The notes under the pieces were generated by a model. It saw only the letters and a list, made by a program, of their open reading frames with translations. It did no database searches and was not told the DNA's origin. A stretch of 64,000 nt of DNA from an uncultured bacterium. Lineage in GTDB: Bacteria; Patescibacteriota; Patescibacteriia; UBA1558; GWA2-36-10. Shown here piece by piece: positions 39,897 to 51,159 of this stretch. The stretch covers positions 2,740-66,739 of the forward strand of contig CAINYB010000001.1 of the NCBI GenBank assembly GCA_903855135.1, given 5' to 3'. Both the position numbers and the translations under genes were made by a program. Position 1 is the stretch's first letter, and each line of letters begins with the position of its first letter.

Positions 39897-40314
39897 TTTT
39901 TATTTGTTTTAAAATTTTATTTTGCATTTGTTCTTGCTTATTATATTCTACCTCACTCTTTTCATGATCAAAACCCAACAAATGCAGGATGCCATGGGTA
40001 GTTAATAATTTTAACTCGGCACTTAAAGACTTTTTATTAGCCTCTGCTTGGCGTTTGGCTACTGGTAAACAAATCACCACTTCACCTAAAATAGCAGTGG
40101 AATCAAGATTAAAAGACAAGACATCAGTTACTTTATTTTTATGACGATAAACTCTATTTAAATTTTTTATTTCTAATTCCGAAACCAGAGCTAAAGAAAT
40201 AGCTTGTTTTAATTTAAATTTTTTAGCAATAATAGCTTCTAATTTTTTGAGCCAAGAAAAATTAGCTTTTTGTCCTCGCTTATTTAAATAGATAGCGAAA
40301 TTATTATTTGACAT
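39889..40314 (-). CDS. ybeY: rRNA maturation endoribonuclease YbeY
   Basis: HGxLHLxGxDH motif. Confidence 0.9.
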   Translation of the reverse strand: MSNNNFAIYLNKRGQKANFSWLKKLEAIIAKKFKLKQAISLALVSELEIKNLNRVYRHKNKVTDVLSFNLDSTAILGEVVICLPVAKRQAEANKKSLSAELKLLTTHGILHLLGFDHEKSEVEYNKQEQMQNKILKQIKND

Positions 40315-41366
40315 TATTTTAACAAACTAAAACTATTTAGCATCATTAAATAAGTATTAGCAAAATATGGCTTTGATTCTGTTTCTATGTGATAAGTAAA
40401 TTTAATAAAATAATTATTTACTTTAGCAAATACCGTATAAGCATCAGCTATTTTGCTTTGTAGAGCACTAATCTTTGCTTCTTTACCTAAAGTCAAAGAC
40501 GAAAGAGTAGCACCGTCAGCCTTACTTTGAGCCCAGGCTTGCAAAGTTTGATTTGCTACCACCGCTTCAGCACTAATGCTCATAAAATCACCAGTACCAG
40601 AATCAGGAGTAAACATAATCTCTAAATCATTACCCTCTATTGCTTGGCTGAGCCAATTTTTTGGCTTTAATAAAAGATACTTGACAGTTTGATTACTAAA
40701 TTGAGTAATCAAACTAGAATGCACTAAGGCTTGATTTGATAAAAGTGGATTATATAAATTCATCACTTCCACGCCATCTTTATAACCATCGTTATCAGTA
40801 TCTTCATCGTTATTATTAGTGCCAAAAATTAACTCTTCCTCAACGCTTAAATCATCACTGTCTTGATCAAAATTATTACTTGTCGGTGGTGGTGGCGGCG
40901 GTGGTGGAGTCACTTGTCCATTATTAGCTGGCTCATTGTTATTGCCTTGATTAACTGGCGTGGTGCTAGTGGTGGTTGTGGCCACAACTTCTGGAACTGA
41001 TTGCTCCTCTTCTTTTGGCGGCTCTACAATATTTTGATTATTAGCTTGATTTTGTGTATTATTTTGATCAGTTTTTGCTTGATTATTAGAAACTGATAAA
41101 TTCGCAAATAAAAGCATTGAGCCTACTACAATCAATAAAAAAACCACAAAAGCGATGCTACCCAAAATAATCTTTTGTTTATTGCTTAATTGTTTTTTTG
41201 GAGAAGTCGGTAAAAATTTTTGTGGCATAACATGAATAGCGTCTTGACTAATTACTATTTCTTTTTCTTTACCTATTTCTTGATTAACAATCGTATTAAT
41301 CTCGTTCGACATTTTTTGATTGTCGATTTGAGTTTGATCTTGAAAATTGTCTTGTTCGTTAGGCAT
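40314..41366 (-). CDS. single-pass membrane protein: N-in, N/Q/T-rich linker, poly-Pro, thrombospondin-type-3-like DxDxDG calcium-binding repeat, plus a ~150 aa C-terminal domain
   Basis: PPPPPPPP is encoded by the (GGT/GGC)n tract at 40885-40909. DEDTDNDGYKDGVEVMNLYNPL is homologous to the C-terminus of the next gene. Confidence 0.55.
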   Translation of the reverse strand: MPNEQDNFQDQTQIDNQKMSNEINTIVNQEIGKEKEIVISQDAIHVMPQKFLPTSPKKQLSNKQKIILGSIAFVVFLLIVVGSMLLFANLSVSNNQAKTDQNNTQNQANNQNIVEPPKEEEQSVPEVVATTTTSTTPVNQGNNNEPANNGQVTPPPPPPPPTSNNFDQDSDDLSVEEELIFGTNNNDEDTDNDGYKDGVEVMNLYNPLLSNQALVHSSLITQFSNQTVKYLLLKPKNWLSQAIEGNDLEIMFTPDSGTGDFMSISAEAVVANQTLQAWAQSKADGATLSSLTLGKEAKISALQSKIADAYTVFAKVNNYFIKFTYHIETESKPYFANTYLMMLNSFSLLK

Positions 41367-41374
41367 ATTTTATT

Positions 41375-42106
41375 TTATTTTGCTAATAAACCATCCCCAT
41401 TGGGATTATATCCATTTTGTACCTCTACCCCATCCAAATAAGTATCATTATCCGTATCTGGATCCAAAGCATTTGTCTGGTGAGTAAAAATCTCCACTTT
41501 ATCATATAAACCGTCATTATCCGTATCTGGATTTACTGGTGATGTTCTATGAATTCTCACTTCATCTTTATCTGATAAACCATCGTCGTCGGTATCTGCT
41601 AGTCTTGGATCAGAACCAAGTCCAGTTTCCTCTGCATTACTCAAACCATCAGAATCATCATCTAAAATCACTTCTGGCTGATTTTGAGTATTATTATTTG
41701 TAGGATTATTTTCAGCTGGCTGATTTTGAGTATTATTATTTGTAGGATTGTCAGTATTTTCAGTACTTTTTTTCGAGACAAAAAAAGAATATGCGCCCCA
41801 GATAACTAGAGTAAGTAATATCAAACCAGATAAAGCAACGAAAACTTTCTTCATAATCGCACTCTGACTATGCTCATCTTCCATCAAAATGGGATTGGGT
41901 ATATTAGGATTTGTAGGCATCGGCGGTAAATTCATAGGACTTGGTTTTACTTGCAATTTAGCAGCTGAAATAGCACTTGGTTTTTCTACAGCACCAAACA
42001 TATCATCTACCGCCGACACTGGTGCTGGCGATGGACTCGCAGTCGTAGGTTGCGAAGAAAAATCTTGACTAGGCGTAGCATCGCCTTTTTTTACATCATC
42101 AAACAT
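41375..42106 (-). CDS. single-pass membrane protein with three TSP3-like calcium-binding repeats, ending ...YNPNGDG; paralog of the upstream gene
   Basis: DSDGLSNAEE...DTDDDGLSDKDE...DTDNDGLYDKVE...DTDNDTYLDGVE, and a 42-bp tandem duplication at 41676-41759. Confidence 0.6.
   Translation of the reverse strand: MFDDVKKGDATPSQDFSSQPTTASPSPAPVSAVDDMFGAVEKPSAISAAKLQVKPSPMNLPPMPTNPNIPNPILMEDEHSQSAIMKKVFVALSGLILLTLVIWGAYSFFVSKKSTENTDNPTNNNTQNQPAENNPTNNNTQNQPEVILDDDSDGLSNAEETGLGSDPRLADTDDDGLSDKDEVRIHRTSPVNPDTDNDGLYDKVEIFTHQTNALDPDTDNDTYLDGVEVQNGYNPNGDGLLAK
41676..41759 (-). repeat. 2 x 42-bp tandem repeat (ggctgattttgagtattattatttgtaggatt...) encoding NPTNNNTQNQP(A/E)x2
   Basis: Seen directly in the sequence. 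Confidence 0.8.
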
Positions 42107-42118
42107 AGCTCAAATAAT

Positions 42119-45100
42119 TTAATTTTGATTATTATTGTTGTTCATTGGCTGCTGCCAGAGACAAAGTAAAGGAAGGGTGTGATCGCACCGTGGCCATGTA
42201 TTTTCATTCATAGATAAAAATGATCCTCCACTCCAAGTTATGTCAGGATTAGAATTAGGATTAGGACTAATCTTACTGGTCTCACCTAAACGACCCCGGT
42301 TCACACAATCATTTATATATCTAATGTTTTCAAAACTATTCGTATAATCATGACAAAAATTCTCCTCAGAATCCATGTTGCAAATTTCACCACTCATAGC
42401 AATACCAGGATAATAAATGCTTCCATCATATTTGGTACCACTCCAAAAAATGCAACCTTGCGCTGTGCAATCATTTATTGGATTATTCATGGCAGTTTGC
42501 TCACCATTTTCAAGTCTATTAATCGCATTATCTAATGTCGTATCTGTTAAATCCGTCCAATCATCGGCTATCACAGTGCCATTAGTCATCTTATACTCTA
42601 AAGAATTATGTGCTAATCTACTGCCAGCCGAAGTATCAAAGTCAGATAGCCAAGCTTTCCAAATACCTTCTCTAGCTAGGCTATTCTGTGAATCTGCATG
42701 CCATTGACATAAATAATCAGCTGCTGCCAAACCATCAGAGCCACTATAGCCCTTATTTGTTGCTGCGCCCAACAAATTACCATTATATGCAGTGGAAGTC
42801 AGAAATATTGTGGCCCCATCTGACTCGGCTATTTCAGAACAATTACTTTGATTAAAATTACAAGACGCATTACAACTTAAACTACCTTGATCCCAACCAA
42901 AATCTTGGCAAGTTTGGTTGTTTAAATTTGAACCATCGCATTGCTCTGGAGGGTTAATCACCCCATTACCACAGTTGGGTGGTGGTGGTGGCAGTGACTC
43001 TTCATCAGAACAATCGCTAAGATCGAAATTACATTGATTACAACTTAAATTACCATAATCATAATCAAAAGCAGTGCAATCTTTACCCGCTAAGTTAGTA
43101 GTATCACATTCCTCACTGGGATTTATCACTCCATCACCACAACTAGCTGGGCTGGCCACACTGCCATCGCTGCAAACTGGCGTACAAGTATTACAAGTGG
43201 CTGTCTGACCATCCAAACACGAGTACTCCTCTACAACCGTGTTGTTTCCCTCACATGTTTCATAAGGGTCATCTAAAATATGATCACCGCAATAGCCACC
43301 ACACATAGCCTCGGTCAAAATCGGCCATGGCTCATACCAAGTACATTCTATGGAGTTACCATCTGCATCCAAAGAGCCGGCTGGGTAACAGCCACCTAAA
43401 TGCTCATTCCACCAATCCTGGTTATTATCAGGCTCTGGAGTTGTATCACATAAATTTTGGAAACCACCATCGCACTCTTCTGCACCATCAACAACGCCAT
43501 TACCACAACCCAAACTACCCTGTGGTAAACCATTAAAAGAAGCGTTGCATTGTGGATTATTTAAATGAATATGTTCATCTAAGTCTGGAATAGTATAATT
43601 ATTAGGATAGACAAATTCAAAGTTAGCATCTAAAGAATAATTATAACCACCCTCATTTTTATAAAAATAAATACTCGAATTTAAAGGACAGGTGAATCTA
43701 TTGATTTCATCATTCCAACAAGTTTCTTCATCAAAACCATCTGGGCAAGCACTAAAGCGATTCAATGGGTCTACTGGCAATGACATACCTAAAACGTTAG
43801 AAAATTCTTGTTGCCAAGATGGCCAAGGGCTAACTGCTATGTGAGGTACATAAGTACCGGCATTCAATAATGGATAATAAGGCACACAATCACCCCCACT
43901 TGGACACTGACTATCTTGCGTGCAACTAATATTAGCATTATTATTACAGAATTTATAATTATTACTATAGGCTTTTAATTTATTTTGAATACTTAATAAA
44001 TCACCTAAGCGCTGATTATCGCGACGTAATTTATCACCATCAGCGTCACAATTTCCTTGATTTGGGCAATCAAATTTACTAGAACAACTAATACTAGCAT
44101 CGCTACTACAAACTCCCATATTAGAAACATTTGTACTCAAATGTAAATTAGACAACATTTGACTGACAATATCGGCTGTGGACTCTCTTGCTCCAATGCT
44201 ATAAGAAATCATGTAAATATTACTATATACACTACCACCATTTACATCCACCACATTCAAGGCGTTAATATAGATAGTATTACCAACTTTAAGTGCTGGG
44301 TAGCCATCTATCACTTGCGCTTGGCCTGCTATTTCTGGATTTGGTGCATATTTTGTATACCAGTCACTCAAGGCTAAATGTTCTTCATTTTTCATCACTC
44401 GAACGCCTATTACATCCAAAGAAGAAGCTTTAGCAGTGACCGCAATTTCATTAGTCGCCGCTGATTCTCCACCCATGTTATAAGCTGTCACACGATAGCT
44501 ATAGACTTCGTTATTTATAACATTGTTATCCGTAAAATTAATTGGATTTTGATTACCGCTATCAACAGTTGCTATTTTATACCAATCAACTGTGCTCGAT
44601 TTACGATAAATATTAAAACCATCTTCGTTAGTAGCATTATCTGTCCAAGCTAATTTTACGCCATCAGCACTATTATCAGCTAAAAGTAAACTAGTAGGCG
44701 CACTTGGGATAGCAATTGCAGCTAAAACAGTATTTTTAACTTTAGCAAATAAATTTTGCCACCAATAATTTTTTGTATTTTCCTCACTTTTTGCAATAAC
44801 TGTTTGTTTAGGATCAACGATAAAAATAAATTCTCTTAAAGTTTGACCATTAGGTGGCAAAATATTTGGGGAACCTAAATATGGTAATAAGGGCTCATTC
44901 ACTCGACCAGAATCTTGACAATAATAGGTACTAAAATTATACAAATCATTAAAATCATAAGGAAAATTACTAGCTTGTCTTGGCCACGGATGTTCGCATA
45001 AAAACAAATCTACTTGTGCACTACCCAGTGCGCTACCAGCTAGCTCATCGCTAACTTCAACTATTAAGTTAGTTTGACCATTTTTATTTAGCGCTGTAGC

Positions 45101-48100
45101 TAAAATAGTTTGCTGGTTATCACTTTCTAAGTCTAAAAAGTCATTGTTTTCCTGCCAAGCATAATCAGTCATCACCAATGGTGATCCACTAGGATCATAA
45201 GCTATCGCTGTATAACTATGTTGATTGCCACTCAAAGCATCAGCCACATCACCCAGACAATTACTTCTACTACAACTAAATAAATCTGGATTAGGAGCAA
45301 CAGTGACAAAACTCACGCGACACATTTGATTATTTGTCTCAAAAAGCCAAATGTAAGCGTCCATACTACCATTATCATCGCTATCAAAATTTAATTGTTC
45401 AGTAACCAAATTAACACCCATATTACTTTTTACTCTTCCAGAGACTAAAGATAAATACTCAGTACTAGCTTGTAATGGTGAAACTGGATATAAAAACGCT
45501 TTGCTTTTGTCACTATTATTAGTAAAGACAAAATTTGTTTCCACCGGGCAATACCACTGGAAATCTTTCTTGACACAATAACCAGGTAATTCTTCACTGG
45601 CAGATTTTTTATATAAACGCATACCTGCTTCTAGGCTAGCACGATCCATCAAAGTATTAAATTGCACTTCTATGGCTGAATTTAAACAAGCTGGAGTTTG
45701 CGGTTTTGGGGTTGGGACTATTTTTGGAGCTGTATAAACTAAAGTATCTCCAAAATCTACTTCTAATATTGCCTGATCTTCTAATGTATAACTAGACAAA
45801 GAGGCATTAACACGCGTCATACCTTCTGCTTGTGGCCTAATGTCAGCACGATAAATATTTGATGGTATTAAATCAGCTATCCCAGCAGGATTCAAACTCC
45901 AATTATATGGGCTATACGACATTGGGTTTAAAATTTGACCATGAGGGTCACAGGCGTTAGCTGTGCTATATGGAAAAGCTGAATAATTAATCATCGAATC
46001 ATCAGTGGCTAAATAATAGCTTGGGTCAATCTCCAAAGACGTAGGCGTACAAGCCCCATCTTTATTGGTTTGAAAACTCCAGCTAAAAGGTGCGCTGATT
46101 TTATAACCAGCAATATTTTTTAACTCTTGTTTTAACTCTACTTTATAATATGTTTCAGGAATAAAATCACTATGCAAAATAGCGACTCTACGACCATCTA
46201 CCGAAACATCAAAACTAGTAACTAAATTAGCACCAGTAAGTAAAGCACAAGTTGAATCTGTACATTTTTTTATAACAATATTATCATACAAATTACTTTC
46301 TGAAATAGCTGTATTAAAATCTACCCAAACTAAAGCATTTGTACAGGAGCTATTACAATTTGGACCATAATCAACAACTTCTAAGACAGCATCTTTTATC
46401 TTTGGATAAGCATAAGACATAAGGCCGTTTAATTGAGCTTTGACTGTAACTGTAGCTGGTGTACTATTTTCTGTCACCTGTGTGCCCTCAACTTTTACTT
46501 TAGCAATATTAGTATTCTGGGTTCTGAACCAGCCAATATTTGCCTTATCGGCGTTTGAGCCCTCTAAAGACCAAGCCGACCAATTATAATTACTACCACA
46601 AATATTACAATTTCCCCCAATTGGGCTAGCACTAAACTCTCTTTCATGACCAACATAAATATCTGCACTCGGACTATCAGTCGGAGTCACTGCTATGCTG
46701 ACGACTTGGCAAAGATTTTCTTGTGCTCTAAAATGCCAATCATAAGTAGCACCAGACCAAGTCTCACTACCACTAGCTTTATTAAACTCTCCTAAAGCTA
46801 CTTTATACCAACGATTAGGTGTTAAATTTATTCCGGGATTTAAAACAAAACCTTCTTGATTACTATTATGATTAATAATCGTGAGATTAACTGCTATATT
46901 TTCCACACAATCCGCCGAATTAAAAGCACCGCCAGTATTACAAGCAAATAATTTCAAATTACTAGTAGTATTAAAATCTGCATCTTCAACATCAGCGTTA
47001 AACATACCCGTGATATTTGTATCTAAATAAGCGTCGGTTGCGCCTGGCCAAGGAGAAGGTGAAGAAAGATTATGAACAGCTGGATCACAAGCAAGCTCTT
47101 GCAAAGAAAATGGATCAGCAGCAGTGGTGATTGTCCAAGAATAGCTACAAGACAAATCTGCTGGGCAATGACCAAGTGGCGCGCAATAGTTACCAGTTGC
47201 TTCTTGACAACATTCATTACCAGACACACATTGAGTGTTATTAGTGCAAGTTGCCACTGAAAAATTCAAGCCATTGCTGTCTTGAGCACCAACTCTAACT
47301 TTAGTAGGACCAGTCACCGCTCCATTAGGTACCCTGACATTAATCAATTGATCACTCCAAGAATTAATCTCGCTTGAGACTCCACTACTAAAATATACAT
47401 GATCGCTAACATTACCAAAATTATCACCATATAAAGTGACATCAAAAACACCATTGGCTGGACCATTATTTGGGTCCATAAAACACAAGCCTGGACCAGG
47501 AGCACCAATGCTCATATTAAAATTATAGGCATTACTTTGCTCTGAGTCTGAACTACGTATAACTTTGATTTGATAAGGGCCCGATGCCAAATTAGGAGCT
47601 TTGACAACGATGCTATCATTGCGCCAATAATTAGCTAAACATTGAGCTGGAAAATCAAAATCACCCAAGTCAAAAGTACCATCTGGTTTAATGAACCTTA
47701 CGCTACCAGCAATATTACCAAAATTACTACCTATAATAGTTAAATATTGCCCAGCTGGTGCATTATCTGGGTTTATTGAATTGATAATCGGTGCGCCGCC
47801 ACCGGCTACCTCAACACTAAATGGTAGCTCATTACTACTTTTATCAGCAGTATTCTTGAACCAAACACTAAGCTCACCAGCAGATAAATTCGGAACTACT
47901 AAATTAGCTTTTTGAGGATTATCATAAGAAAATGTTCCATTTACTCCGCCAAAAAAGGCACTATCTGTATTATTAAAATTAAAACCATGAGCAACAACTG
48001 CTTCACCAAAACTACCAGAAGTTGGCTCTAATTTACACAAACTAGGTGCTTCTTCGCCAGAATCATTAAAAATCTTAGAATTACTCTCTCTTTCATCTAC

Positions 48101-49492
48101 ATGTCGCACAAAAATGTTAGCACTGGTATCACGAACTTCAGCTGGAACTACTATAACGATTAAATTATCACTCCAATAGTCTGTACAAGCCGAATTTACG
48201 TCATGTGGATCTATACCAAACTTCTCATTACCATCTGCACCTTCAAAAACTACTCGACCGCCACTAGAGCCAAATCCCGAACCATAAACACTAACAATAG
48301 AGCCCTCTTTAGATATTTCTGGACTTATTCTAGTGATTACTGGCCCATCACTTTCAGTGGCTGCACTAAGACAAAAATTTTCATCCACACAAGCATTAGC
48401 CGCACAACAGCCAGACGCACAGTCATTTGGGCCATTGTCACACAAAACATTAAAATCTTCCGGTGCTGATTGTATCTCATTCACTTCCACAAACAGATCC
48501 CCAGACAAAGCATTCATAGGCACAATGGCATTGGTAATTTTAGTATCTGTCCACGTACCAATACTACCAAAACGATTCGATTGCCAAACGTTACCGTCCC
48601 AATTAAAAATATCAACAAAACCAGAATCACCAAAGCCAATACCCTCTATCATGATACCTTCACCACGACGTTGAGTATTTGGCGTCACGCAAGCAATGCC
48701 TGGACCAGGCTCGCCCTCTCTGACTTCAAAAGTAGCTAAATCTGGGTAAGAGCCTTCTTTATTACTAGCAGTATTAATTTTTATCCGATAATTGCCCAAA
48801 GCCACGTTAGGTACAATGGCTTTAATGCGAAAATAGTTATTTGGGCGATTATTAAGACGATTCCAAGCAGCTTGACCATTGCAGTTAATCAGACTAGCTT
48901 CTTGAATCACACCACTACCATCAAATTTTACTTTACTATTTACCGCATTATAAGTTTCAAAATTCCAACCTTCAATAGTAATATATTGACCAATAGTAGC
49001 ACTATTAGCATTTGGTTTAACTTTACAAATTCTAACTGAACCATCATCTGGTGCTGGACAATCTGGAGGAACTACAATCGGATTAATAATAGTACCACCA
49101 TTGTTATTATTACTATTGGGATTAGTGGCCTCATATAATTTATTCAAAACAAAACTAGCGATCGCATAAGCAGATAAAATAATCACCAAGCCGATCACCG
49201 CACTAACAATAATACCTTTAGCAGTTTTTATTTTTTCTTCATCACCACGAGAAGTCATCCATAAATAACCAGCATATAGAATCAAGACAACAGCCAAGAC
49301 TCCCAAAAAACCTAAAAATATATTAATAATATTAGCAATCACCTGCTTTAGGTCTGACTGAGCCAGATTGACTCCAGCGTTTGTCAGATCATTTACTCCA
49401 GTCACATCATTACTTTGGGCTAAAACTAAATTGGCTTTAAGGAGAATTAAAGTCAGAAATGAAAGTAGAGACCAAAAAATTTTTTTATTCAT
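42119..49492 (-). CDS. giant (2457 aa) cell-surface protein: signal peptide + VirB2/TrbC-pilin-like two-helix anchor, ~6 IPT/TIG-like beta-sandwich domains, Cys-rich linkers, FN3 domain, 4 Myxococcus-type cysteine-rich repeats (CGNGxxDxxEECD), C-terminal DUF1554/lectin-like domain
   Basis: One uninterrupted 7.4-kb ORF. Domain motifs: GFG/GSGFG IPT signatures, LAWTDNATNEDGFNIYRK (FN3), CGNGVVDGAEECDGG, and ATIFLTSTAYNGNLLG...ADYLC. Confidence 0.8.
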   Translation of the reverse strand: MNKKIFWSLLSFLTLILLKANLVLAQSNDVTGVNDLTNAGVNLAQSDLKQVIANIINIFLGFLGVLAVVLILYAGYLWMTSRGDEEKIKTAKGIIVSAVIGLVIILSAYAIASFVLNKLYEATNPNSNNNNGGTIINPIVVPPDCPAPDDGSVRICKVKPNANSATIGQYITIEGWNFETYNAVNSKVKFDGSGVIQEASLINCNGQAAWNRLNNRPNNYFRIKAIVPNVALGNYRIKINTASNKEGSYPDLATFEVREGEPGPGIACVTPNTQRRGEGIMIEGIGFGDSGFVDIFNWDGNVWQSNRFGSIGTWTDTKITNAIVPMNALSGDLFVEVNEIQSAPEDFNVLCDNGPNDCASGCCAANACVDENFCLSAATESDGPVITRISPEISKEGSIVSVYGSGFGSSGGRVVFEGADGNEKFGIDPHDVNSACTDYWSDNLIVIVVPAEVRDTSANIFVRHVDERESNSKIFNDSGEEAPSLCKLEPTSGSFGEAVVAHGFNFNNTDSAFFGGVNGTFSYDNPQKANLVVPNLSAGELSVWFKNTADKSSNELPFSVEVAGGGAPIINSINPDNAPAGQYLTIIGSNFGNIAGSVRFIKPDGTFDLGDFDFPAQCLANYWRNDSIVVKAPNLASGPYQIKVIRSSDSEQSNAYNFNMSIGAPGPGLCFMDPNNGPANGVFDVTLYGDNFGNVSDHVYFSSGVSSEINSWSDQLINVRVPNGAVTGPTKVRVGAQDSNGLNFSVATCTNNTQCVSGNECCQEATGNYCAPLGHCPADLSCSYSWTITTAADPFSLQELACDPAVHNLSSPSPWPGATDAYLDTNITGMFNADVEDADFNTTSNLKLFACNTGGAFNSADCVENIAVNLTIINHNSNQEGFVLNPGINLTPNRWYKVALGEFNKASGSETWSGATYDWHFRAQENLCQVVSIAVTPTDSPSADIYVGHEREFSASPIGGNCNICGSNYNWSAWSLEGSNADKANIGWFRTQNTNIAKVKVEGTQVTENSTPATVTVKAQLNGLMSYAYPKIKDAVLEVVDYGPNCNSSCTNALVWVDFNTAISESNLYDNIVIKKCTDSTCALLTGANLVTSFDVSVDGRRVAILHSDFIPETYYKVELKQELKNIAGYKISAPFSWSFQTNKDGACTPTSLEIDPSYYLATDDSMINYSAFPYSTANACDPHGQILNPMSYSPYNWSLNPAGIADLIPSNIYRADIRPQAEGMTRVNASLSSYTLEDQAILEVDFGDTLVYTAPKIVPTPKPQTPACLNSAIEVQFNTLMDRASLEAGMRLYKKSASEELPGYCVKKDFQWYCPVETNFVFTNNSDKSKAFLYPVSPLQASTEYLSLVSGRVKSNMGVNLVTEQLNFDSDDNGSMDAYIWLFETNNQMCRVSFVTVAPNPDLFSCSRSNCLGDVADALSGNQHSYTAIAYDPSGSPLVMTDYAWQENNDFLDLESDNQQTILATALNKNGQTNLIVEVSDELAGSALGSAQVDLFLCEHPWPRQASNFPYDFNDLYNFSTYYCQDSGRVNEPLLPYLGSPNILPPNGQTLREFIFIVDPKQTVIAKSEENTKNYWWQNLFAKVKNTVLAAIAIPSAPTSLLLADNSADGVKLAWTDNATNEDGFNIYRKSSTVDWYKIATVDSGNQNPINFTDNNVINNEVYSYRVTAYNMGGESAATNEIAVTAKASSLDVIGVRVMKNEEHLALSDWYTKYAPNPEIAGQAQVIDGYPALKVGNTIYINALNVVDVNGGSVYSNIYMISYSIGARESTADIVSQMLSNLHLSTNVSNMGVCSSDASISCSSKFDCPNQGNCDADGDKLRRDNQRLGDLLSIQNKLKAYSNNYKFCNNNANISCTQDSQCPSGGDCVPYYPLLNAGTYVPHIAVSPWPSWQQEFSNVLGMSLPVDPLNRFSACPDGFDEETCWNDEINRFTCPLNSSIYFYKNEGGYNYSLDANFEFVYPNNYTIPDLDEHIHLNNPQCNASFNGLPQGSLGCGNGVVDGAEECDGGFQNLCDTTPEPDNNQDWWNEHLGGCYPAGSLDADGNSIECTWYEPWPILTEAMCGGYCGDHILDDPYETCEGNNTVVEEYSCLDGQTATCNTCTPVCSDGSVASPASCGDGVINPSEECDTTNLAGKDCTAFDYDYGNLSCNQCNFDLSDCSDEESLPPPPPNCGNGVINPPEQCDGSNLNNQTCQDFGWDQGSLSCNASCNFNQSNCSEIAESDGATIFLTSTAYNGNLLGAATNKGYSGSDGLAAADYLCQWHADSQNSLAREGIWKAWLSDFDTSAGSRLAHNSLEYKMTNGTVIADDWTDLTDTTLDNAINRLENGEQTAMNNPINDCTAQGCIFWSGTKYDGSIYYPGIAMSGEICNMDSEENFCHDYTNSFENIRYINDCVNRGRLGETSKISPNPNSNPDITWSGGSFLSMNENTWPRCDHTLPLLCLWQQPMNNNNNQN

Positions 49493-49584
49493 GATAATAT
49501 AGCTAAAATTTTATTTTAATTTGTTTACTCCCCGTCTAATGCCTGCCTGTCGGTAGGCAGAGCAGTCAAACGGCACACGCTGCA

Positions 49585-51159
49585 TTAATCGCTCTCACAC
49601 CTCGAACCAAGAACGCAATCTGGCGAAGGATCCCCTTCACAAACACAAGATCGGCCAGTAGGATCTTGACAAACACAAGGTTGAAAACAATTTTGATAAA
49701 CATCTTTGATATCTGAAGTCAAAGTTGGCTTATAAGATGTGTAGGATTTTAAACGATCATGAGATATTTTGATTTGACGTCCACTAGCCACACTTAGCCA
49801 ATAATTTATTGGATTATTCGGTGATTCCACAAAAGTAATATTATCACTATTGATAGAGGCAGTCATAAGACTTTTATCAAAAATGATGTTAATTGGTGAG
49901 TTTGTAGGAACGGCATTGTTATCTTCCATGGAACTAATTTTTGGTGGCACCAAATCAATCGTATTATTAGTATTAAATGCCCAGACATAATCAGCGGCTA
50001 GCGAATTATCTGCCATATCTTTGATATTAGTCGTGACAGTAGAAGCTAAACTAGCTGAGGCTGGTAGACAATATACATTACCTCCGCAAGAATTAGTACC
50101 ACAAAGATCATCAGTCACAAATTCTACGGTTCTGTATTGATTTGCTATCCGATAAGTACCAGCTAAAATAGTAGCTGCCTGTTTAACATTGATATTAGTA
50201 AAGGCTGGTGCTAGGCCACTAGCTAAAAGTGGATTTATACTTTCAGAAAAATTCACCTGCACAATAGTATTACGAGGATTAATAGTGTCAGCCACTGGTA
50301 TCACTGAAACTACAGTTGGTGGTGTCAAGTCTATCTCTTCACTGACAGTAAAATTCCAATCATAGCCATTTAAACCAAAGGCTGATTCGCCACTATCTTT
50401 CCTAATCTCATTGGACAAAGAAAAATTGTAACTAGTATTTTGGTTAGCTGCTCCTAAATAAGACCCTGGATCACTACCAAATGGATTTAAAGCCAAAACT
50501 TTATGGTCTTCACTTAAAATAGCTTGTAAGGAATTATTATCAAAAATTTGATCAGTAGTATTATTTTTTAATATAAGATTATTTGCCTTGGCACAGGTGC
50601 CATAAGAACAATCAAATAATAAATCTTCGGACTTAATGGCTTCTTTGAAAGTAATATAAATATTAGTATTACGCGGAATATCTTCAGCATTACGCATCGG
50701 ATAATGACTTTCAATCACACCATTACCAATACCAATACCTCCATGATAACCACCGCCACCATCAGCTCCACCGCCACCACCAAAAGTACCATCAAATAAA
50801 GCTTTTAAAATAAAACTAGCGATCGCATAAGCAGCGAGCGTAATAGCTAAGCCAATAGCGGTATCTACCATAATTTTTTTAGCCTTTTCTAGCTTAGCTG
50901 CTTCACCATTGGCCGTCATCCATAACCAACCAGCATAGAGAAATAATAAGACCGCCAAAGTCCCTAAAAATCCCAAAATAATATTAATAATATTGGCGAT
51001 CACTTGTTTTAAATCTGTTTGCCCCAAATTTACTCCAGCGTTAGCCAGGTCGTTAACCCCTGTAACATCGTTACTTTGTGCTAACAAGTCTTTTGGTAAC
51101 AAAAAAATAACTGCTAATAAAACAATTAGAAAAACAGTTATTCTCTTTAATTTAAGCAT
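49585..51159 (-). CDS. surface protein (524 aa) with the same signal peptide + VirB2/TrbC-pilin-like anchor, Gly-rich linker, bacterial Ig-like (SbsA-type) domains and a Cys-rich C-terminus
   Basis: Its N-terminal 125 aa are ~70% identical to the giant protein N-terminus. DLTPPTVVSV is an Ig-like domain start. Confidence 0.75.
   Translation of the reverse strand: MLKLKRITVFLIVLLAVIFLLPKDLLAQSNDVTGVNDLANAGVNLGQTDLKQVIANIINIILGFLGTLAVLLFLYAGWLWMTANGEAAKLEKAKKIMVDTAIGLAITLAAYAIASFILKALFDGTFGGGGGADGGGGYHGGIGIGNGVIESHYPMRNAEDIPRNTNIYITFKEAIKSEDLLFDCSYGTCAKANNLILKNNTTDQIFDNNSLQAILSEDHKVLALNPFGSDPGSYLGAANQNTSYNFSLSNEIRKDSGESAFGLNGYDWNFTVSEEIDLTPPTVVSVIPVADTINPRNTIVQVNFSESINPLLASGLAPAFTNINVKQAATILAGTYRIANQYRTVEFVTDDLCGTNSCGGNVYCLPASASLASTVTTNIKDMADNSLAADYVWAFNTNNTIDLVPPKISSMEDNNAVPTNSPINIIFDKSLMTASINSDNITFVESPNNPINYWLSVASGRQIKISHDRLKSYTSYKPTLTSDIKDVYQNCFQPCVCQDPTGRSCVCEGDPSPDCVLGSRCESD

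Follow-up and report, generated by a model that had tools for sequence, protein, structure and literature searches.

Two adjacent genes in a 64-kb stretch of Patescibacterial DNA (contig CAINYB010000001.1; "the window" below means this whole stretch) encode large surface proteins, S and G, that begin with the same N-terminal module. The module is homologous to VirB2/TrbC-type pilins, specifically to their Patescibacterial branch PF18895. S and G together with two membrane proteins carrying TSP3 repeats make up a conserved four-gene cassette at a fixed position among housekeeping genes, and the modules of S and G evolve in concert. We propose that S and G are modular VirB2-family proteins whose hairpins would form a matched membrane base displaying short and very long immunoglobulin-like (Ig-like) stalks, as parts of an attachment cassette, and we judge the chances of this proposal to be about even.

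The shared N-terminal module of S and G

Gene S (49585..51159, minus strand) encodes a protein of 524 amino acids (aa) in which a signal peptide and VirB2-like pilin module are joined through a Gly-rich linker to three Big_5 Ig-like domains. Gene G (42119..49492), adjacent on the same strand beyond a spacer of 92 bp, encodes 2457 aa; here the signal peptide and VirB2-like pilin module are followed by an Asn-rich linker, five TIG domains, three Big_5 domains, one fn3 domain, Cys-rich repeats and a lineage-specific C-terminal domain. Identical S and G proteins were found on 12-14 independently assembled metagenome contigs, hence the genes are real and not an artefact of assembly. The original prediction, made from the window alone, had held that these two open reading frames (ORFs) share an N-terminal module, and BLASTP bears this out: residues 25-125 of S align with residues 23-123 of G without a gap at 69% identity over 101 residues (E 2e-39), and the same comparison of both proteins gave no significant similarity outside the module. 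The features it had quoted are all present in the two sequences. The signal peptides end in ...LLA/QS and ...VLA/QS and are followed by the segment NDVTGVNDL(A/T)NAGVNL and two long hydrophobic helices, with a short charged loop between the helices (TANGEAAKLEKAKK and TSRGDEEKIKTAKG in the two proteins).

The family of the module was established with profile searches. In a Pfam scan G matched PF18895 (T4SS_pilin, the pilin of type IV secretion systems, T4SS) with 38.7 bits, above the cut-off of 26.6, and S fell just under it with 25.0 bits. Both were below the 27.9-bit cut-off of PF04956 (TrbC; G 26.7 bits, S 23.4 bits), with alignments spanning the whole module (E 7e-6 to 7e-5). For NCBIfam NF045849, a pilin-like conjugal transfer protein of Mycoplasma integrative and conjugative elements (ICEs), G scored 36.3 bits against a cut-off of 40, with 72 of 80 model positions aligned. 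A custom pilin hidden Markov model (HMM) made from 119 stand-alone pilins gave 149 bits for G (E 2.5e-45) and 125 bits for S (E 4.3e-38); when it was run on all 470 stop-to-stop ORFs of the window, S and G were the sole matches (next best E 0.16) and no stand-alone pilin gene was found. The S and G modules are 40-56% identical to stand-alone pilins. In an alignment of 54 sequences they retain all the invariant and near-invariant positions of the family; the invariant residues L63, L72, G75, M79, G83, A91 and G101 are present in both, as are the GFLG and W-M-T motifs. The stand-alone pilins in this alignment stop ~10-20 residues from the point where S and G run on. The VirB2/TrbC homology that had been proposed thus stands on PF18895 and the custom HMM, with the PF04956 and NF045849 matches sub-threshold, and the Patescibacterial branch is the more exact assignment.

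We also considered whether the module might be a type IV pilin processed by a prepilin peptidase, or a chance feature of a signal peptide plus transmembrane (TM) segments, a case which the original prediction had itself raised. No class III motif (G/F-or-M-x-x-x-E) is present in the first 60 residues of S and G, and neither protein gave a type IV pilin match in Pfam. Together with the matches to PF18895, PF04956 and NF045849 and the E-values of the pilin HMM, this makes such an identity extremely improbable; nothing was found in its favour, and it was set aside.

AlphaFold2 predicted a two-helix hairpin in both proteins, as had been anticipated. The model of S, built with 66 orthologues, has a predicted local distance difference test score (pLDDT) of 82.6, and that of the G module 80.2 overall and 89-97 across the hairpin. 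The predicted order is a signal helix, a disordered segment of ~20 residues, the long hairpin (pLDDT 84-97) and a disordered Gly- or Asn-rich linker. In S the signal peptide (51079..51159, minus strand; aa 1-27; predicted helix 5-27) is read from the sequence as ending at a predicted cleavage site ...LLA27/Q28, and A27, at position -1 to the predicted cut, is at least 90% conserved among the 66 orthologues. The S module (50782..51078, minus strand; aa 28-126), delimited by the custom HMM, alignment and AlphaFold2, has a variable exposed N-terminal segment, a helix 50-82, a turn and a helix 87-126. It is followed by the linker and ectodomain (49588..50781, minus strand), which consist of a Gly-rich linker of low pLDDT (aa 127-147), three beta-sandwich domains and a Cys-rich tail. 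The corresponding G signal peptide (49418..49492, minus strand; aa 1-25; predicted helix 3-23) has its predicted cleavage at ...VLA25/Q26, also from reading the sequence, and the G module (49124..49417, minus strand; aa 26-123), delimited in the same way, has a helix 48-79, a turn and a helix 85-122. Fold comparison of the hairpin with VirB2 and F-pilin structures was non-discriminating, since the matches to a helical hairpin include thousands of unrelated structures. A search of PDB sequences with the module profile matched no pilin, its single weak match being a designed protein.

The fusion to extracellular-type domains that had been described was confirmed by Pfam, which finds Ig-like ectodomains in both proteins. 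The S ectodomain matches Big_5 (E 1.6e-22), and a Foldseek search with the full S model returned only Ig-domain stalks (the BIg domains of LdtMt2, the S-layer protein SbsC and titin), which gave no functional clue. The passenger of G contains five TIG domains (E 3e-26), three Big_5 domains (E 7.5e-16) and one weakly matching fn3 domain; its Cys-rich repeats gave weak DUF4215 and myxo_disulf_rpt matches. Ig-like and Cys-rich ectodomains of these types are typical of extracytoplasmic proteins. The C-terminal ~250 aa of G had no family match in Pfam, a relaxed threshold included, and at that threshold nothing credible was found for G residues ~1690-1990. A likeness of the end of G to DUF1554 was considered, was not confirmed by the relaxed Pfam scan and was dropped.

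Within the spacer between S and G (49543-49560, minus strand) lies a GC-rich hairpin, CTGCCT-accgac-AGGCAG, without a T tail, against the AT-rich background of the genome. One possibility is that it sets the S:G ratio as an element of RNA processing or stability.

Relatives of the module were at first sought with a word-indexed search, which returned stand-alone Patescibacterial proteins of ~120-150 aa annotated as PF18895, "pilin" or "TrbC/VirB2 family". This search listed only proteins of 101-203 aa and missed S and G themselves; the bias was corrected by an exhaustive HMMER search with the module against 1.84 billion representatives, in which 39,109 proteins matched at E <=1e-3 and 9,149 at E <=1e-10. 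The survey for other proteins with this N-terminus thus gave a large family. On re-scanning 147 of the best 150 matches, we found 23 single-module proteins of less than 250 aa, 16 of 250-999 aa and 27 of at least 1000 aa, the module being N-terminal in every one of the last group; the other 81 carry 2-12 tandem modules. Long single-module proteins therefore account for 43 of the 147, and the fused architecture is frequent in sequence space. Further stand-alone relatives form arrays of 5-6 pilin genes adjoining a solute-binding protein gene, and no VirB4 was found within 10 kb of these arrays.

The tandem-module proteins can be described as pilin polyproteins. In these, for example P0241 (552 aa), P0243 (1775 aa), P0246 (1147 aa) and ~80 others, 2-12 PF18895 hairpins per chain (17 matched stretches by phmmer) are joined by linkers of ~25-30 aa.

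The four-gene cassette and its matched N-termini

Downstream of G the cassette continues with two further genes on the minus strand. The third, TSP3-243 (41375..42106), starts 12 bp past the G stop codon and encodes a 243-aa single-pass membrane protein with bacterial TSP3 repeats of the calcium-binding type (TSP3_bac, E 5.4e-09). The fourth, TM-350 (40314..41366), encodes a protein of 350 aa that crosses the membrane once and has a poly-Pro/Asn linker, a single TSP3 repeat (weak TSP3_bac match) and a C-terminal domain for which a Pfam scan at relaxed threshold gave nothing credible.

The original prediction had supposed that the module was recruited as a membrane anchor or fibre base, plausibly for host attachment. 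Such a recruitment is no one-off: scanning a single genome for each GTDB species found the S and G pair at no fewer than 569 species loci. Full-length homologues of S with the PF18895 and PF13205 (Big_5) architecture number at least 284, and where named are mostly called "Ig-like domain-containing protein". The locus statistics that follow refer to the best 80 of these at least 569 loci, which belong to Komeili-, Uhr-, Falkow- and Magasanikbacteria and to unnamed Patescibacteria; the cassette-bearing genomes listed in the accessible part of Table S1 of PMC12102498 are all of class ABY1. In ~75 of the 80, an S-type gene (500-970 aa) is followed immediately by a same-strand gene whose N-terminus matches the pilin HMM. 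The second gene reaches up to ~3500 aa where the sequence permits, a few being clipped by contig ends, and several of the ~5 loci without this arrangement run into contig ends. Related loci contain 76 ORFs of more than 1400 aa, almost exclusively the giants, and 71 of these can be aligned with G over at least some of its length. Most of G is covered in its closest relatives, and its last ~250 aa are common to the closest relatives only, many loci ending before the 3' end of the gene.

The genomic setting is equally constant. Upstream lie S21 (74 of the 80 loci), YqeY (69), HisRS (68), LepB (66) and LCP (41). Among the 8 loci with sufficient downstream sequence, TSP3-243 and TM-350 homologues are present in all 8 and YbeY in 6. 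No T4SS genes were found within 10 kb of the cassette in the three loci L004-L006, and a Pfam scan of all unclear proteins found none in the 64-kb window, VirB4, VirB6 and VirD4 included, in agreement with what had been noted there. S and G, at 524 and 2457 aa, differ from the PF18895 pilins described in the literature, which are stand-alone proteins of ~120-150 aa, and in these same regions they occupy neither a pilin array nor a virB4-adjacent location.

Other arrangements were noted at individual loci. In L058 (9075-9812), just upstream of S, the longest ORF (246 aa) runs in frame from a complete YqeY domain into a signal-like segment and then a pilin-like hairpin; it may represent a true fusion or result from the way ORFs were called. 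In L072 (8753-9247) and L085 (11737-12123) a stand-alone pilin gene of 165 and 129 aa, respectively, lies between S and G, and its N-terminal segment resembles the adjacent G module, with a common DPRVI/DPRAI motif.

The signal peptidase I gene that neighbours the cassette in 66 of the 80 loci bears on a reading where S and G are polyprotein precursors, a second cut after helix 2 (AYAIAS) freeing a pilin and a soluble or wall-bound ectodomain. An A-x-A-like motif (AYA/AIA) does lie at the outer end of helix 2 in S, G and stand-alone pilins, and C-terminal trimming is known for RP4 TrbC. In the AlphaFold2 models, though, the helix runs unbroken through AYAIAS with no preceding helix breaker, which is unfavourable for signal peptidase I. 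Furthermore, the motif is equally conserved in free pilins with only ~10 residues beyond it, and the flexible linker after the helix resembles a tether more than a cleavage region. We therefore regard a second cut as very unlikely.

We then compared the S and G modules across 75 genomes. Mean identity was 54.8% between S and G of the same genome, 41.7% between S modules, 43.0% between G modules and 41.0% between S and the G of another genome. The excess is largest in the mature N-terminal segment, which is 49.8% identical within and 25.3% between genomes; the helices and loop are ~62% identical within and ~50% between genomes, and the excess in the signal peptide is small. When the S-G pairing was permuted, none of 10,000 permutations reached the observed values.

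Codons were compared at the residues identical between S and G. Over all lineages the codon is the same at 51.3% of identical residues against 42.9% expected from codon usage, so that most lineages give no sign of recent conversion. In the window the value is 53%, with a nucleotide identity of 71.6%, which rules out recent gene conversion as the source of the S-G likeness there. In contrast, five lineages (L082, L035, L025, L014 and L043) share the codon at 74-89% of identical S/G residues, with ~43% expected, so that recent conversion has occurred in those. The simplest description of the matching is episodic conversion followed by purifying selection.

A bare-pilin lineage bears on the role of the G hairpin. 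In L087 (5857-7855) and L088 (1142-3140) an S orthologue of 519 aa is followed by a bare 142-aa pilin, P0003, and then by rpsL-rpsG-fusA, the order being ...S21-YqeY-[S orthologue]-[142-aa pilin]-S12-S7-EF-G; neither a giant gene nor either TSP3 gene occupies this slot. P0003 is the closest stand-alone pilin, with 53% identity to the G module, and its mature N-terminus matches the neighbouring S. A bare pilin kept without a passenger implies that the G hairpin is retained for its own sake, which argues that the G-type hairpin has a role of its own alongside S, beyond anchoring G.

These observations can be set against an account in which the hairpins are mere membrane anchors of pilin ancestry, S and G function separately as surface proteins, and their likeness within a genome is neutral gene conversion. 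The clear recent conversion in several lineages (74-89% same codons) would fit such an account, as would the fact that the module is the sole alignable part of S and G, and so would their housekeeping, non-T4SS context. It sits poorly with the invariant GFLG...Y.G..WMT..G...AK...GL pattern, superfluous for a plain anchor, with the persistence of protein likeness in most genomes while synonymous sites are near random (51% vs 43% expected), and with the retention of the G-type hairpin without a passenger in the bare-pilin lineage. On balance we consider it improbable.

Membrane base or pilus subunit

In the model that we prefer, Sec would export S and G, and signal peptidase I would cleave at the conserved ...LA/QS. 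The hairpin would remain in the cytoplasmic membrane, its two ends on the outer side, with helix 1 passing from outside to inside, the charged loop being cytoplasmic, and helix 2 passing from inside to outside and starting the export of all downstream sequence. The flexible Gly- or Asn-rich linker would let the Ig-like chain project, ~380-400 aa in S and ~2300 aa in G. The S and G hairpins may then pack together, possibly with free pilins, through the helix-helix contacts conserved in the family, giving a matched base that bears one short and one very long stalk. With the two TSP3-repeat membrane proteins this would constitute a constitutively encoded surface-fibre or attachment cassette in the core genome of ABY1-type Patescibacteria, S and G being its putative adhesive components.

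Several points weigh against a matched membrane base. Contact between S and G is itself something we infer, and neutral gene conversion between adjacent paralogues can yield concerted evolution, as its traces in five lineages illustrate. The strict conservation of pilin residues argues that the hairpin is more than a membrane resident, and suits pilus assembly at least as well. The interhelix loop is only weakly positive, so that it is mainly the kind of ectodomain that supports the proposed topology.

The same conservation leads to an alternative in which the Patescibacterial T4SS pilus contains S and G as genuine minor or tip subunits. VirB4/VirB6, encoded at another place in the genome, would extract their hairpins from the membrane together with the free pilins, and the Ig passengers would remain outside the pilus as the adhesin otherwise missing from this T4SS. 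Every invariant pilin residue is kept in both modules over hundreds of species, and the proteins with 2-12 tandem modules indicate that hairpins of this family can be tethered at both ends. Solved VirB2- and F-type pili have both pilin termini at the outer surface, and a C-terminal passenger is thus compatible with pilus topology. At two loci, L072 and L085, S and G are separated by the gene of a free pilin. VirB4 is recorded for 4 of the 5 cassette-bearing genomes matched in the part of Table S1 of PMC12102498 consulted, the exception being an incomplete 619-kb assembly, and no adhesins were found among the Patescibacteria data of that 2025 T4SS survey (PMC12102498).

However, the cassette never adjoins T4SS genes in the loci examined and sits in a housekeeping operon instead; the reported position of virB4 is close to dnaA/dnaN or, in ABY1, close to comF/recG/radA. 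Most Patescibacteria have VirB4, so that its co-occurrence with the cassette says little. A 2300-aa passenger on each subunit would be sterically impossible, which would limit G to a few copies per fibre at most, and no PF18895 protein has been reported as forming a pilus (PMC12102498, PMC10633639, PMC12857230). Assembly into a T4SS pilus is hence a possibility that we rate as rather unlikely. If it occurs, S and G could be the first modular conjugative-type pilins built into a T4SS pilus, S as a short subunit and G as an adhesin at the tip or interspersed. Tentatively, they might then be the missing adhesins of this T4SS, with the matched N-termini as a subunit code through which the heteropolymer stays compatible. 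By a rough estimate from domain count, the G fibre would be ~60-90 nm long.

The cassette was also compared with known systems. Patescibacterial VirB2-like pilins of PF18895 are stand-alone proteins, often in arrays, and are essential in Southlakia epibionticum (PMC10633639, PMC12102498). S and G resemble them in the signal peptide, variable N-terminal segment, two long helices, short loop and invariant residues, and differ in the added ~400 and ~2300 aa of Ig-like domains, the housekeeping operon and the fixed pairing with concerted N-termini. With VirB2, TrbC and TraA of the T-pilus and F-pilus they share a two-helix hairpin following signal-peptide cleavage, which in S and G is predicted; unlike these, they score below the PF04956 cut-off and come from a host with a single membrane. 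The head-to-tail cyclisation of VirB2 and TrbC would be impossible in S and G unless the large C-terminal passenger were first cut off. NF045849 (the Mbov_0395 family) provides a link to the T4SS pilin-like proteins of single-membrane bacteria through its alignment with the G module, although that family is a small stand-alone ICE protein and the G score lies under its cut-off.

Modular type IV pilins such as PilB and PilC of Streptococcus sanguinis carry a C-terminal adhesive domain on a pilin module. S and G resemble these Gram-positive proteins in having an N-terminal polymerisation or anchoring pilin module and functional passengers at the C-terminus. The type IV pilins combine a class III signal peptide with one N-terminal helix, whereas S and G have a Sec signal and a helical hairpin; the superfamily is unrelated and the machinery differs.

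The S-G cassette is also similar to the Pam pili as a candidate surface fibre of candidate phyla radiation (CPR) bacteria with Ig-like domains and a conserved operon. The Pam proteins are Sec-exported and membrane-tethered, use donor-strand exchange with PapD-like chaperones to polymerise, lack a VirB2-like hairpin and occur mainly in Saccharimonadia and Microgenomatia (bioRxiv 10.64898/2026.03.03.709456). We rejected Pam as the identity of the cassette, in which a Pfam scan found no chaperone-like match, which has VirB2-like hairpins, and whose classified genomes in the part of the source table consulted are ABY1.

Window context and significance

The window is a co-directional housekeeping stretch of low GC (~35%). 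The gene order is LCP(+), LepB, HisRS, S21 and YqeY, then S, G, TSP3-243 and TM-350, then YbeY, DAGK, FtsA and FtsZ. From their translations and from precomputed Pfam labels on identical contigs, the ORFs outside the set of unclear proteins that went into the Pfam scan are recognisable housekeeping genes. A scan of the cassette for promoters and terminators gave counts equal to the shuffled expectation.

Some further genes of the window were noted. At 24128-24478 and 31372-31701, both on the plus strand and so opposite to almost all other genes, are paralogous small coiled-coil proteins of 116 and 109 aa with near-identical ends, one with a repeated DVSELKT unit; Pfam gave only coiled-coil noise for them. 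Additional predicted surface proteins are encoded on the minus strand. At 33371-35691 these are a 590-aa secreted protein with a prenyltransferase/terpene-cyclase-like alpha-alpha toroid and DUF4430 and, after it, an Ig-like protein of 188 aa that ends in a TM helix; at 29782-31251 it is a beta-rich protein of 489 aa, anchored in the membrane and without a family match. ComEC functions are split at 27406-29666 (minus strand) over two overlapping ORFs, a Competence/DUF4131 membrane part (28230-29666) and a metallo-beta-lactamase part (27406-28233).

The original prediction had been of a small-genome bacterium, which agrees with a Patescibacterial host, and had taken the architecture to be undescribed. 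No description of the S-G cassette was found in the literature searched, where PF18895 proteins are treated only as small pilins and pilin arrays (PMC12102498, PMC10633639, PMC12857230); the module's family, the Patescibacterial VirB2-like pilins, is already known (PMC12102498, PMC10633639), and long fusions are common in databases. Three things seem to be new: that ABY1-type Patescibacteria conserve the S and G pair and the four-gene cassette at a constant core-genome position, that the N-termini of the pair are concerted, and the idea of a conjugative-type pilin hairpin bearing giant passengers.

Patescibacteria represent a large part of bacterial diversity, and to our knowledge those brought into culture all live in attachment to other microbes. 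In the single species tested, the T4SS and its VirB2-like pilins are essential (PMC10633639, PMC12102498). Collectively our data show that one pilin module heads a conserved pair of large Ig surface proteins in hundreds of ABY1-type species, which makes S and G widely conserved, concrete candidates for the attachment structure of an uncultured class. They pose the question of whether these bacteria use a conjugative-type hairpin as part of a pilus or as a base in the membrane, and either answer would be new for the pilin superfamily. The genome-specific matched N-termini provide a handle on subunit compatibility.

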